A DNA stretch of 64,000 nucleotides from Candidatus Shapirobacteria bacterium (GCA_043817235.1 JBDRHA010000007.1:9212-73211); one strand, 5' to 3'. Positions 16,057 to 22,755 are shown, counted from the first letter of the stretch. Numbers and translations: made by a program. Notes: a model not told the origin generated them from the letters alone.

Positions 16057-16806
16057 TTATGATAAACGTTCCACAATTTCCACTGCAATCCTGATATATG
16101 ATCTCAACTTTGCTTTATTTACGTTTCTACCTGCGTGTTGTACTGGATTTCGATGTCTATGAAGCACTGTGAGTCGTCTACTTTGATGTGCAGTGATGAG
16201 TCGGCTGTTTCTTGCGTTATTAACTACAACTGGGAAATGTGCCCTATCAAAAACTCCTCCAAGTCTATCTTTTAGGATATTTTCTATTGATCCATCAACT
16301 GAAATAAGCATATCCTCATTCGCTTCTCCGAGCAAAAAATTGTAGTGTGCCTCAATTATCGAAATAATTGCTTTTTTCGATCTTTGGCTTAGCCCCCGCT
16401 TATTAAGTAATCGATACACTTTAGGACTTAAAACTCTTCCTATTACCTGAGCTCCAAAAAGCTGAGCATCTCTAAATACCTTATCTGTTATCCCCATGAG
16501 CCCTTCACTATTTGCTGTGAAATATGGCCTAAGTACTTTATCGTAAAATTGAACTCTTTTAAGAGTTATTATTGGGAATCTACTTCGAATGAAGTAATCG
16601 GATGCCCTAGATGAGTCTTCTTCAAAAGCTTGCATCTGTTGCAGTGGACCATCAATATTGACGTAAAAGCTTTCATTTCCAGACAATGATTTAAAATGTG
16701 TTTCTAGCCCCAAACTTTTTGCAATATTTAGAGAATATACAAGAAACTCTCGAGCGAGAGGCTTCCATTTTTTGTCTACTTTAAAAGAATAATCGTATCC
16801 TGCCAT
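16057..16806 (-). CDS. Hypothetical protein (last gene of the LexA-headed operon).
   Basis: 249 aa. No recognisable motif. Confidence 0.3.
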   Translation of the reverse strand: MAGYDYSFKVDKKWKPLAREFLVYSLNIAKSLGLETHFKSLSGNESFYVNIDGPLQQMQAFEEDSSRASDYFIRSRFPIITLKRVQFYDKVLRPYFTANSEGLMGITDKVFRDAQLFGAQVIGRVLSPKVYRLLNKRGLSQRSKKAIISIIEAHYNFLLGEANEDMLISVDGSIENILKDRLGGVFDRAHFPVVVNNARNSRLITAHQSRRLTVLHRHRNPVQHAGRNVNKAKLRSYIRIAVEIVERLS

Positions 16807-16828
16807 AATTAATTAGTAATATTTTAAA

Positions 16829-17596
16829 CTACTTTTTCAGATAGTAACTAGGATGTATCGGTAAAGCAAAATATTTTATGATTTTTGTGTTTATCAATTC
16901 TATTGGAATTTCATTTTGCGGGCCCTTTGGCGCTTTGTTGGCCAAACCCCTGGAAAAATGATATGCGGTTAAGTCAACTAACTCTAACCCAGAAACACTG
17001 GGGTCTTTCTCAACGAATTCTGGCCTGTTAATTTTATGGTGTGTTAACTTACTTGCCTTAGTTAAACCAACGCGTCCATGCATTTCAAACTCCATTTTCC
17101 ATCTATCTAAAACGGCTTTATTAAGTTTTGGGTGTGATCTTGCTTCGGCAGTTATTCGTCCTTCCTCGTTTAAGGATAAAGTTTCCATAAAAGTATCGAC
17201 TACAATTTCAACACCTAACAAATATGGATCAGGCTGATTTGCTTCCAATGCCTTCAAATATTCTGGAACATGGACAGTAAACCCACATAGTTTAAAATCT
17301 GATTTGGCAATTACCTTATTCAAATCAAGATAAAACCTTTCTCGAAATTTAGCATCAGCAAACTGGTCTATCCCACTTTGCTTACTTCTGGTTGGGTTTG
17401 CAAACTCTCTTGAATGAAAAACAACATCTTCTCTTTGAAAAAACTTAAGCTTTATTTTTCGAAACTCTTTTGTAAGTTTGTTATTGGATTTACGATCAAT
17501 GATTACTCCTGCTAATAAAAAAATGGGATTATCTGGGTTTATTTTTGTGACATCATCTGAATATGTTCCGGATTCATCAATATAGAGAGTTTTCAT
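16829..17596 (-). CDS. DUF3800-family protein.
   Basis: An N-terminal LYIDESG motif typical of DUF3800. It overlaps the upstream gene by 4 nt. Confidence 0.5.
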   Translation of the reverse strand: MKTLYIDESGTYSDDVTKINPDNPIFLLAGVIIDRKSNNKLTKEFRKIKLKFFQREDVVFHSREFANPTRSKQSGIDQFADAKFRERFYLDLNKVIAKSDFKLCGFTVHVPEYLKALEANQPDPYLLGVEIVVDTFMETLSLNEEGRITAEARSHPKLNKAVLDRWKMEFEMHGRVGLTKASKLTHHKINRPEFVEKDPSVSGLELVDLTAYHFSRGLANKAPKGPQNEIPIELINTKIIKYFALPIHPSYYLKK

Positions 17597-18180
17597 ACTT
17601 TTTGATCAAGTAGATTGTATTTATTATCCTGCTCATATAATTGTTTTCCCCAAACAAAATCTGGAACTTTCAACAACTCTTCTGTCGGTACTTGCATTAC
17701 AGTGAAAAAGACATTAAATAATTCATCCATATCATCTGTATAAATTCTAAAATATTCATGCGTATGGAAGTCTAGATTACTTATCTTTTCTAAATATTCC
17801 TTTGGGGCACTCCCAGTGACTATTTCGATTGCTTGAGCACTTTTATCACCTTTTAAATTTATATATCTAACTCTTTCCCATGAGTCTAAATTTTTAACAA
17901 TTGAATCAAATTTGTTTAGTTTAGTATCCACTATTTCAGACTTAAACTCGCCCCAAAGTTTAACTAGGTTATGGCCGAATTTGCTTTTTAGCTTATCAGT
18001 AGAATATTTCTTCCTTAAATATGATTTAATTAATAATTCAAAAGCTAAATGGTATAGATTTCCGCTAGCGGGGTTAAAAGGAAAACGTGCCCCAACTCGC
18101 GCAAGTAAATAATATTGAATACCCAAACTTACGTATTGGTGATCAAGTAAGCCATTATAAAATTTTGAATACCACATCAT
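17593..18180 (-). CDS. Hypothetical protein (operon member).
   Basis: The start is placed at the MMWYSK methionine to avoid a 32-nt overlap. No recognisable domain. Confidence 0.3.
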   Translation of the reverse strand: MMWYSKFYNGLLDHQYVSLGIQYYLLARVGARFPFNPASGNLYHLAFELLIKSYLRKKYSTDKLKSKFGHNLVKLWGEFKSEIVDTKLNKFDSIVKNLDSWERVRYINLKGDKSAQAIEIVTGSAPKEYLEKISNLDFHTHEYFRIYTDDMDELFNVFFTVMQVPTEELLKVPDFVWGKQLYEQDNKYNLLDQKV

Positions 18181-21615: not shown

Positions 21616-22130
21616 ATGGTCCTTTCATTTGGATAAGTGGATAGCATTGTAAACACATCACTTGTTAGTCGTAGTGGAGTATTGCAAACAGAGTAGTAAG
21701 GATAAGTATTTAGCTTTTTCCATTGTTTTGGTTTTAACGCCGCATTATCTCCAAAGGTATAAATAAGGATAGGGATCTTTTGTGCCACAGATTTGTCAAA
21801 AATTGAGTCAAAATTCTCCATCTTTTCATCACATCCTAAAATGACCAGGCTGTGGTTGGAAATTCTTACAGTGTCCCTAAAATCACCTGTTGGCTTTTCA
21901 ACATTGAATAACCCACTTTTTGACAATAGGTTGTATTCCATCTCCATGTTCTTTGTTGCATTTCCCGGCGGGAAGAAAATCTTAATCGGTCTTTTCAGAT
22001 TGTTATTAATTATTTTCTCTCTCTTATAAAAAAGTTTGAAATACGATACGGCGGCGACAATACCTATGACTGCCGATGTTCCGATCAAAACCAGCCAATG
22101 AATCAAACTTAAAGTGCCTAATACTTCCAT
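21612..22130 (-). CDS. Single-pass membrane protein with a cytoplasmic alpha/beta domain, hypothetical.
   Basis: N-terminal TM helix LVLIGTSAVIGIVAAV. It overlaps the NTase start by 4 nt. Confidence 0.3.
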   Translation of the reverse strand: MEVLGTLSLIHWLVLIGTSAVIGIVAAVSYFKLFYKREKIINNNLKRPIKIFFPPGNATKNMEMEYNLLSKSGLFNVEKPTGDFRDTVRISNHSLVILGCDEKMENFDSIFDKSVAQKIPILIYTFGDNAALKPKQWKKLNTYPYYSVCNTPLRLTSDVFTMLSTYPNERTI

Positions 22131-22131
22131 A

Positions 22132-22755
22132 TTATTTGTTTCCTTTCTTAATTACATCTATAGCAACCCCTTGGACAGAGAAGTTTTCAAGTAAAATAAT
22201 TGGTTTATTCTTCGGATTAGTTGACTCCGGCTGAAGTCGAACATAACCATCTTCGGGGATAATCTTTTTAATGGTTGCCTCATCTCCGACAAGAACAACC
22301 ACGCGACTACCAGAATCGGCCGTTTGTTGTTTTTGGACCAGAACAAAGTCTCCATCGTCAATTGCCTTGCCAGAAACCCTGGTGGCGTTCATGCTATCTC
22401 CCACTGCGCGTAAGAAAAAGTAGTCATTTGGTGACCCTCCGATTTTGGAAGCATCATATGAGATGTAAGCTTCAACATTCTCTGTGGCTAGAAATGGGAC
22501 CCCACAGGCTACATTACCCACTAGGGGAATTTGAACTTTGTCAGATGAGTCAGGCAAAGATAGACCACGAGCATTTTTTAAGTAACCCTTTTCTTTAAGG
22601 GCATCTGTGTGTCGCTGGACAGAACTTACACTGGATAGACCAAGAAGTACTCGAAGCTCTTCAAGCGTAGGCATCACACCATTTTTACTGACCTGATCTT
22701 TAATCAGAGAGAGTACCGTTTTTTGTTTTGAGGTTAAGGGCTTCTTCATACGCAT
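22132..22755 (-). CDS. lexA: LexA-like transcriptional repressor (HTH plus S24 peptidase).
   Basis: VQRHTDALKEKGYL is the HTH. GDSM is the catalytic Ser. The downstream KK is the Lys dyad. The first gene of the 8-gene co-directional cluster. Confidence 0.75.
   Translation of the reverse strand: MRMKKPLTSKQKTVLSLIKDQVSKNGVMPTLEELRVLLGLSSVSSVQRHTDALKEKGYLKNARGLSLPDSSDKVQIPLVGNVACGVPFLATENVEAYISYDASKIGGSPNDYFFLRAVGDSMNATRVSGKAIDDGDFVLVQKQQTADSGSRVVVLVGDEATIKKIIPEDGYVRLQPESTNPKNKPIILLENFSVQGVAIDVIKKGNK

Follow-up and report, generated by a model that had tools for sequence, protein, structure and literature searches.

A predicted LexA-headed E2-type CBASS in the defence-cargo slot of a Candidatus Shapirobacteria island

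We analysed a stretch of 64,000 nucleotides from a metagenome-assembled genome (MAG) of Candidatus Shapirobacteria, of the Patescibacteria or candidate phyla radiation (CPR) (GCA_043817235.1, JBDRHA010000007.1:9212-73211). This stretch is the window, and positions are counted from its first nucleotide. Attention was given to a run of eight genes on the minus strand, from 22755 down to 16057, which an earlier note, made from the sequence, had put forward as one undescribed signalling-type defence system headed by a LexA-like repressor. All eight open reading frames (ORFs) were found where the earlier note had placed them. In order of transcription they are lexA (gene 1, 22132-22755, 207 aa), a gene for a transmembrane (TM) effector (gene 2, 21612-22130, 172 aa), a cGAS/DncV-like nucleotidyltransferase or CD-NTase (gene 3, 20557-21615, 352 aa), an E2-only Cap2 homologue (gene 4, 19815-20597, about 250 aa, with its likely start M12 at 20564), a triple-zinc-ribbon protein that we call ZnR (gene 5, 18185-19834, 549 aa), a 207-aa protein with a weak HEPN-like signal (gene 6, 17593-18216), a DUF3800 protein (gene 7, 16829-17596, 255 aa), and a 249-aa protein with a C-terminal HEPN-type motif (gene 8, 16057-16806). 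We consider it probable that the run has three layers, namely a LexA-headed E2-type anti-phage system that signals through cyclic oligonucleotides (CBASS), a ZnR gene belonging to the backbone of a larger island, and three independent nuclease-type cargo genes. This reading draws on observed family memberships, active-site and cleavage motifs, conservation of gene order, and a palindrome in the lexA promoter.

The genes are closely packed. LexA and the TM gene are 1 nt apart, and overlaps join the TM and CD-NTase genes (4 nt), the E2 and ZnR genes (20 nt), and the 207-aa and DUF3800 genes (4 nt), so that the spacing described earlier, of 1-nt gaps or 4-20-nt overlaps, holds at four junctions. 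It does not hold for the longest ORFs of the CD-NTase/E2 pair, which overlap by 41 nt (8 nt from the conserved E2 start M12), for the ZnR/207-aa pair, which overlaps by 32 nt from a GTG start (the first ATG leaves a 4-nt gap), or ahead of the last gene, which is preceded by a gap of 22 nt. A consensus scan of the run found no convincing minus-strand terminator and no strong internal promoter, with promoter-like sites fewer than in shuffles. Because of this tight spacing and the lack of convincing terminators or internal promoters in the scan, a single transcript across the eight genes is plausible.

Gene 1 combines an N-terminal winged helix (LexA_DNA_bind, PF01726) with a C-terminal autopeptidase domain (Peptidase_S24, PF00717) in Pfam, and scores 137.9 bits against the NCBIfam lexA equivalog TIGR00498, above its cutoff of 111, which bears out its first description as a LexA-like S24 repressor. 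In its translation, VACG holds a Cys-Gly cleavage site, GDSM the catalytic Ser and ATIKK the Lys; the protein therefore has the winged helix, the S24 domain with a Ser/Lys dyad and the Ala/Cys-Gly site that mark the LexA family. Orthologues 60-82% identical to it were detected in other CPR lineages and in Omnitrophota, all inside islands of the kind described below. Since this identity is well above our own estimate of what vertical descent would leave between lineages so far apart, the comparison points to horizontal movement of LexA with the cassette.

A putative lexA promoter region was read from the sequence at 22757-22813 (minus strand), with an upstream TTGACA at 22813-22808, a proximal TTGCAT at 22785-22780, a 17-nt spacer, and a TAGAAT -10 box at 22762-22757. 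Because this box ends 1 nt ahead of the ATG, the lexA mRNA is probably leaderless. The same layout is kept in two related loci, L013 and L047. The spacer is filled by the palindrome TACGCTAGTTAGAGTA (22761-22776, minus strand; consensus TACGC-N5/6-GCGTA), which overlaps the -10 box and is our candidate LexA operator. The consensus occurs only once in the 64-kb window, although uvrA, uvrB and uvrC are present there. Palindromes stand directly 5' of lexA in seven loci: the window, L013 and L047, where they are near-identical to TACGCTAGTTAGAGTA, and L035, L036, L041 and L097, where the form is TACGC-N5-GCGTA and is still kept next to a different upstream gene. In silico, the candidate operator thus overlaps the repressor gene's own promoter, as autoregulation within the LexA family would have it, and we read the operon as an autoregulated, LexA-repressed, DNA-damage-inducible CBASS, a prediction that stands on motifs and their conservation. 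A separate GC-rich palindrome, TTGACAATAAGGGGGGTGGTTGTCAA, lies at about 22895-22920, on the far side of the intergenic region that lexA shares with a divergent gene for a ParB-N6/N4 DNA methyltransferase (ParB-MTase). L047 and L013 have GC-rich hairpins resembling it in the corresponding position, and it may be a second operator or a promoter element of the terminase module that the ParB-MTase gene heads.

The protein of gene 2 has a single N-terminal TM helix, in agreement with its original reading as a TM protein, and a cytosolic flavodoxin-like alpha/beta domain, presumed to be a nucleotide sensor; its soluble part covers residues 47-172. It matches the PADLOC TM accessory model C3a59 over its full length (1.9e-27) and the PADLOC CBASS '1TM effector' model (2.1e-5). 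Gene 3 encodes a genuine CD-NTase, as had been suspected, and not a minimal nucleotidyltransferase (MNT) or a polymerase-beta-type housekeeping enzyme. Its best match among PADLOC CBASS cyclase models is at 5.5e-49, Pfam SMODS is matched at 3.2e-17, and its nearest solved relatives in the PDB are the CBASS cyclases CdnD and CdnC (5e-13). The active-site residues G70-S71, D83xD85 and D147 are invariant in the alignment of its relatives, and the C-terminal tail, STYVGSSPSKPWCNV, is conserved among close relatives; in it a Gly stands 10 residues before the end, and none at the terminus. An exact-sequence look-up of the CD-NTase returned no record.

Gene 4, first described as a SEC-C protein, matches eight PADLOC models of CBASS E2 or E1-E2 (Cap2-type) proteins, at 3.4e-32 to 1.7e-15. 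Residues H118 and C126 (DLH...GSxCL) are invariant in an alignment of only three sequences, 30-52% identical, and the C-terminus bears a CxCG...CH zinc knuckle. Searches of all eight proteins with Pfam and PADLOC detected no ThiF/E1 domain and no JAB/Cap3 domain. Because genes 4 and 2 match CBASS E2 and TM-effector models, the statement in the earlier note that canonical effectors and Cap2 are absent was mistaken. The locus has a cyclase with the GS...DxD...D core; an effector gene that shares the cyclase operon and runs 4 nt into the cyclase start; and, with no E1 or JAB beside it, an E2-only homologue of Cap2 whose catalytic Cys is conserved. Because a cyclase, an effector and an E2 are present without E1 or JAB, we assign genes 1-4 to the type II-short group: by their sequences they are a LexA-headed E2-type CBASS, a described class plus a LexA head.

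The contexts compared here came from relatives of the TM effector and from loci reached through the ZnR gene. A LexA/S24 gene lies immediately 5' of the TM gene in nine of the nine independent locus groups that have upstream DNA, co-directionally in the window, L035/41, L097, L095, L096, L098 and L100/101, and divergently in L091/92 and L093/94/99, with TM identities of 31-73% across the nine groups. In all such loci but one the TM gene is followed by CD-NTase; the exception is the short contig L096, on which none was detected by tblastn. E2 in turn follows the cyclase in the window, L093/99, L095, L101, L102 and L103. The full order LexA-TM-CD-NTase-E2 is kept in L095 and in L101, whose effector is 31% identical to that of the window. 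On a Bathyarchaeia-labelled contig, TM, CD-NTase and E2 genes accompany a divergent S24 repressor beside a tyrosine integrase, without genes 5-8. The same effector family is found with a HORMA/TRIP13 (type III) CBASS in L091/92, beside metal-efflux genes and with no terminase module. Repressor-controlled CBASS logic, as suggested when the run was first described, therefore stands for genes 1-4 and not beyond them; in the same way, the four-gene core recurs in other genomes and the eight-gene order does not.

Two further families were observed beside these cassettes. Family c25, about 420 aa and unannotated (e.g., L035 14155-15429), replaces E2 after LexA-TM-cyclase in L035 and L041. L026 and L029 also carry it, just 3' of the ZnR gene. 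No PADLOC model matches it, and it may be a new CBASS accessory or an independent cargo gene. A small DUF2188 gene directly follows LexA in two loci (L001 2080-2319 and L095 5079-5318); the CapH/CapP paper reports DUF2188 proteins also in operons with pairs of helix-turn-helix (HTH) and metallopeptidase regulators.

Systems of the E2-CBASS or type II-short class attach E2 by a covalent bond to the C-terminal region of their cyclase; in SmCdnG the linkage lies near G397/G398 and a C-terminal peptide is released (PMC12948482). The Serratia marcescens CdnG-E2 system shares with ours a CD-NTase, an E2-only Cap2 with a catalytic Cys, a single effector, and the lack of E1 and JAB/Cap3 (PMC12948482); the conserved cyclase tail is here a possible E2 substrate. 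In contrast to that type case, the cyclase here is CdnC/CdnD-like rather than of clade G, the E2 is about 250 aa long (SmE2 is 18 kDa) and carries a SEC-C-type zinc knuckle at its C-terminus, and the system has a small 1-TM flavodoxin-like effector, a LexA head and a CPR host. The effector itself resembles the TM accessory effectors of type III CRISPR and CBASS (PADLOC C3a59, Mem_04 and '1TM') in its N-terminal TM helix, its Rossmann/flavodoxin-like domain and its place beside a cyclic-oligonucleotide synthase, and differs from them in being common to E2-type and HORMA/TRIP13-type CBASS. To our knowledge, none of the C3a59, Mem_04 or '1TM' effectors has a characterised member.

Two kinds of CBASS regulator, CapW and CapH/CapP, are known to respond to DNA damage (10.1101/2022.04.27.489752; PMC9122588). 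The present repressor is likewise encoded beside a CBASS, and a DNA-damage or single-stranded DNA (ssDNA) signal would be expected to inactivate it and so raise expression of the CBASS. However, it is a single LexA/S24 protein with no metallopeptidase, unlike the XRE-HTH and metallopeptidase pair of CapH/CapP; it joins a winged helix to a self-cleaving S24 domain, unlike the WYL-domain factor CapW; and its inactivation would run via RecA rather than through direct sensing of ssDNA. Full-text searches of the searchable literature turned up no paper that connects LexA or S24 peptidases with CBASS.

We hypothesize that a LexA dimer bound to TACGC-N6-GCGTA over the -10 box would keep the operon low, and that DNA damage or phage replication would produce RecA-ssDNA filaments that promote LexA self-cleavage at Cys-Gly and de-repression. 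E2 would form a covalent bond with the tail at the CD-NTase C-terminus and tune cyclase activity, as in characterised E2-CBASS. Upon a phage cue the CD-NTase would make a cyclic oligonucleotide, probably a trinucleotide because its sequence is CdnC/CdnD-like. The signal would then bind the 1-TM protein in its cytosolic flavodoxin-like domain, leading to membrane damage and abortion of the infection.

The gene that follows, ZnR, behaves differently. It has at least 407 homologues at E <= 0.001 among 8000 candidates scored, and the best 120, aligned over 89-100% of the query, share 48-100% identity with it. An NCBI entry from Candidatus Shapirobacteria is 100% identical to the ZnR of the window. 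Three zinc ribbons with twelve invariant Cys confirm the zinc-ribbon content first read from the 549-aa protein. Its AlphaFold (AF2) model has a pLDDT of 83 and contains a C-terminal winged-helix-like element. The protein belongs to no Pfam family, with generic zinc-ribbon matches only, all sub-threshold; nor did searches reveal a relative of solved structure, a catalytic or sensor domain that could be recognised or, among 50,697 phage genomes, any homologue. About 20 loci (among L052-L075) encode a short form of roughly 360 aa that matches residues 1-360 only and has neither the third zinc ribbon nor the C-terminal winged-helix-like part, so that this C-terminal module appears to be optional. 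Because of the zinc ribbons and the winged-helix-like element in the model, our best guess is that ZnR binds nucleic acid on behalf of the island, in regulation or recombination.

The neighbourhoods of ZnR were compared by fetching 79 loci around members of the family, calling their ORFs and clustering the proteins. ZnR is found in 81 loci with variable neighbours, and co-occurs with ParB-MTase (32 loci), an XRE regulator (25), a TerS-like protein (21), LexA (19), a DUF2779 protein (14), TerL (13) and serine integrases (13). As we count them, all of these co-occurring genes have members in the window outside the interval 16057-22755. The recurrent map runs <integrase <XRE <TerL <TerS <ParB-MTase >LexA >[variable genes] >ZnR >[variable genes], and the section from TerL through LexA and cargo to ZnR was seen in L013, L021, L037, L047, L072 and L079. 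Where PADLOC or Pfam could name the cargo between LexA/ParB-MTase and ZnR, it proved to be a type I CBASS with a cyclase and 2TM effector (L013), a type III CBASS with a cyclase, TRIP13 and SAVED-nuclease (L027), Shedu (L021), Hachiman (L001), a GajB-like helicase (L012), a PD-T7-4-like gene (L079), or restriction-modification genes (L011 and L029). Many other cargo genes have no match to known systems, e.g., families c20, c55, c25, c135 and c91. In some loci the slot is empty, with ZnR directly after LexA (L072) or after ParB-MTase (L018 and L066).

In 33 of 45 loci the gene 5' of ZnR runs in the same direction as ZnR, at a median gap of 4 nt and with 29 of these 33 gaps no longer than 40 nt, and the genes in this position belong to 35 different families. 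No conserved DNA junction or motif was detected 5' of ZnR in 41 loci, where conservation begins at the ATG. Given the variable cargo, the 35 upstream families and the lack of a conserved 5' motif in these loci, ZnR is, as far as gene neighbourhoods can tell, a backbone or anchor gene of the island that flanks a swap-in defence slot, and not a CBASS component. By the same comparison, the interval from LexA/ParB-MTase to ZnR is a predicted slot for exchanged defence systems, which the CBASS occupies here.

Downstream of ZnR, the 207-aa protein reaches only E = 0.073 against Pfam HEPN. Neither it nor the 249-aa protein has a relative in viral contigs or in PDB sequence searches. The DUF3800 assignment of gene 7 is sound (PF12686, 2.3e-11), and the protein bears an N-terminal DE motif, YIDESG. 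DUF3800 is a predicted RNase H2-like domain and an effector domain of type VII retrons (PMC7736814), and the family is associated with structured RNAs (PMC5737381). The present protein thus resembles the type VII retron effector in its Pfam family, its N-terminal DE motif and its predicted RNase H2-like fold (PMC7736814), and differs from it in standing alone. Scans of the eight proteins and of adjacent ORFs detected no reverse transcriptase domain, the Rfam scan gave no retron non-coding RNA, and a permissive Rfam scan (E <= 1) of 15900-23000 gave no DUF3800-associated RNA motif. Eleven relatives of the protein were detectable, 58-82% identical, and relatives occur alone in other defence islands beside a KAP NTPase, Mrr, an EcoRI methylase or GmrSD. 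The contigs of the close relatives have no 207-aa or 249-aa gene, and genes 6-8 were accordingly rejected as a conserved trio. The family of the 249-aa protein (38 representatives) shares the motif FHxxRNxVQH, here H216-x2-R219-N-x-V-Q-H224, in which R219 never varies and H216, N220, Q223 and H224 hardly vary. DUF4145, which is HEPN-related, is matched by two of 25 members, making the 249-aa protein a candidate HEPN-type RNase. Genes 6-8 are, in our assignment from domains and contexts, independent single-gene nuclease-type cargo without a functional link to the CBASS, though they may share a transcript with the other genes of the run.

These comparisons bear directly on the proposal that all eight genes form one new signalling defence system, in which the products of genes 5-8 would serve the nucleotidyltransferase as downstream sensors or effectors. 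The common strand, the tight spacing and the lack of a convincing internal terminator fit such a system, as does the nuclease-like character of three of the four extra genes, but we regard it as very improbable. Its full order was found in 0 of about 100 related loci; none of the 84 ZnR-anchored loci encodes a homologue of the E2, 207-aa, DUF3800 or 249-aa protein; close DUF3800 relatives stand alone elsewhere; TM-CD-NTase-E2 recurs without ZnR or the tail genes (e.g., L093, L095 and L101); ZnR follows 35 unrelated gene families; and genes 2-4 already make up a complete CBASS of cyclase, effector and E2. That ZnR might instead be a generic functional partner of many defence systems, as sensor, regulator or anti-anti-defence factor, and contribute to the CBASS here, strikes us as quite unlikely. 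TM-CD-NTase-E2 cassettes exist without it (L093 and L101), its place relative to LexA-CBASS flips from upstream (L035, L041 and L097) to downstream (the window and L091), it sits directly beside ParB-MTase or LexA with no cargo in L018, L066 and L072, and it offers no recognisable catalytic or sensor domain. The partner role would nonetheless account for its operon-tight spacing with the upstream gene whatever the family of that gene (median gap 4 nt), for the many loci with no terminase or ParB-MTase within 10 kb (e.g., L002 and L005), for the lack of a conserved upstream DNA site marking a recombination junction, and for the high conservation of its sequence across phyla.

The role of LexA has to be weighed in the same way. 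It passes the lexA equivalog model, lies in a window with uvrC, uvrA and uvrB in the chromosomal flank, precedes Hachiman, Shedu and other cargo as well as CBASS, and is divergent to ParB-MTase/TerS/TerL in the manner of a phage cI repressor, all of which would suit a housekeeping SOS repressor or a lysogeny-type master repressor of the island with the CBASS as passive cargo behind it. We hold this to be unlikely, in view of the adjacency of LexA/S24 to TM-effector CBASS in 9/9 independent groups, which extends to L091/92 without a terminase module and to the Bathyarchaeia-labelled contig, of an order kept down to 31% TM identity, and of LexA identities of 60-82% across CPR and Omnitrophota that look like transfer with the cassette. 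The three-layer reading, with LexA as the head of an E2-CBASS, therefore remains the one we favour. Several points weigh against it. The CD-NTase is CdnC/D-like, while 74% of E2-CBASS cyclases belong to clade G (PMC12948482), and because it has no Gly at its extreme C-terminus, the E2 chemistry may be different from that of characterised E2-CBASS. LexA may be an island-level rather than a CBASS-specific regulator, because it also heads Hachiman and Shedu, and the uvrC, uvrA and uvrB genes of the chromosomal flank leave room for a lexA of the cell's own. The related loci are MAGs, in which we called ORFs crudely. Finally, we infer that the run is co-transcribed, that LexA binds and is cleaved in a RecA-dependent way, which nucleotide is made and how the effector acts.

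The run lies within a defence island of about 35 kb. On the plus strand beyond lexA are the genes for ParB-MTase (22891-24282, likely start 22957; phrog_498, 3.4e-81), a TerS-like HTH protein (24279-24686, Pfam), TerL (24661-26208; PHROGs phrog_38, 7.7e-80), which is about 25% identical to Mu-like phage terminases, and an XRE regulator (26286-26531, Pfam). A type I restriction system with hsdM, hsdS, an SduA-like gene and hsdR occupies 33289-40328; the Shedu SduA_C protein (2e-20) at 36104-37186 is nested in this operon. The far end of the island holds two further backbone genes on the plus strand, a DUF2779 protein (40347-41852) and a serine integrase (41916-43268), the latter adjoined by a tRNA-Glu (43445-43518) and the chromosomal uvrC. 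The chromosomal flank (43445-48254 and 56926-62823) continues from tRNA-Glu and uvrC to uvrA, and then comM, dprA and uvrB. A uvrC homologue also flanks the ZnR islands of L015 and L065, which suggests that the uvrC neighbourhood is a preferred insertion region. Within the window, 53000-55000 stands out by its GC of 0.52 (background about 0.37) and by ORFs overlapping on both strands; the largest of these, 53390-53968 and 53970-54821 (minus strand), have no Pfam match, and no Rfam RNA family was detected in the region.

On the other side of the run are genes for a DUF2130 protein (8141-9328), an OLD-family protein with AAA_15 and TOPRIM nuclease domains (9339-11204) and a type ISP restriction-modification enzyme of 1028 aa (11207-14293). 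A second serine recombinase (14630-16018, plus strand) lies just 3' of the eight genes. Its catalytic domain is incomplete: Pfam Resolvase covers only its residues 6-51, and its PHROG integrase match begins at residue 55. The 3' end of the recombinase gene is duplicated upstream in inverted orientation, 14496-14548 pairing with 15907-15959 (53 nt, 89% complementary) and 14390-14409 with 15835-15854 (20 nt, 100%); the segment 14390-16018 is GC-rich. It may be a switch that works by inversion, or else an integrase in decay.

Serine integrases, TerS, TerL, LexA and XRE supply the integrase, packaging gene and master repressor expected of a prophage or satellite. No capsid, portal, tail or replication genes were detected among the scanned ORFs, several small ORFs at 26.5-33 kb having received no assignment, and no convincing att-type direct repeats bound the island. 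A full prophage was rejected, since no structural genes were found. As in P2/P4 hotspots (PMC9122126) and islands of the phage-inducible chromosomal island (PICI) type, backbone genes flank a swapped defence slot and include an integrase and packaging-related genes. The backbone here is different, consisting of ParB-MTase, TerS, a Mu-like TerL, XRE, serine integrases, LexA and a ZnR of about 550 aa, and it is found chiefly in CPR bacteria and Omnitrophota, as well as in a few MAGs labelled as archaeal. We tentatively suggest, as a possibility that we rate below even, that ParB-MTase/TerS/TerL/XRE/serine integrase together with LexA and ZnR make up an undescribed family of SOS-inducible satellite-like integrative elements of CPR bacteria, with spill-over to Omnitrophota and archaea, whose main payload would be a defence slot expressed from the repressor's promoter.

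What is new at this locus is a LexA-type regulator on an E2-CBASS with an uncharacterised 1-TM effector. A self-cleaving LexA would be a third kind of dedicated CBASS regulator, beside CapW and CapH/CapP, and would tie abortive infection to RecA and the SOS response. The small 1-TM effector of this E2-type CBASS is also used by HORMA-type CBASS. The island itself, a defence-cargo island of CPR bacteria, has apparently not been described before. ZnR and ParB-MTase bracket a defence-cargo slot in dozens of CPR genomes, and the slot is open to systematic mining, which is probably the more useful outcome, as CPR hosts are not culturable and their immune repertoire is poorly known. If the family of satellite-like elements is real, ZnR would be a key function of the element and the slot a discovery tool for new defence genes in uncultivated lineages.

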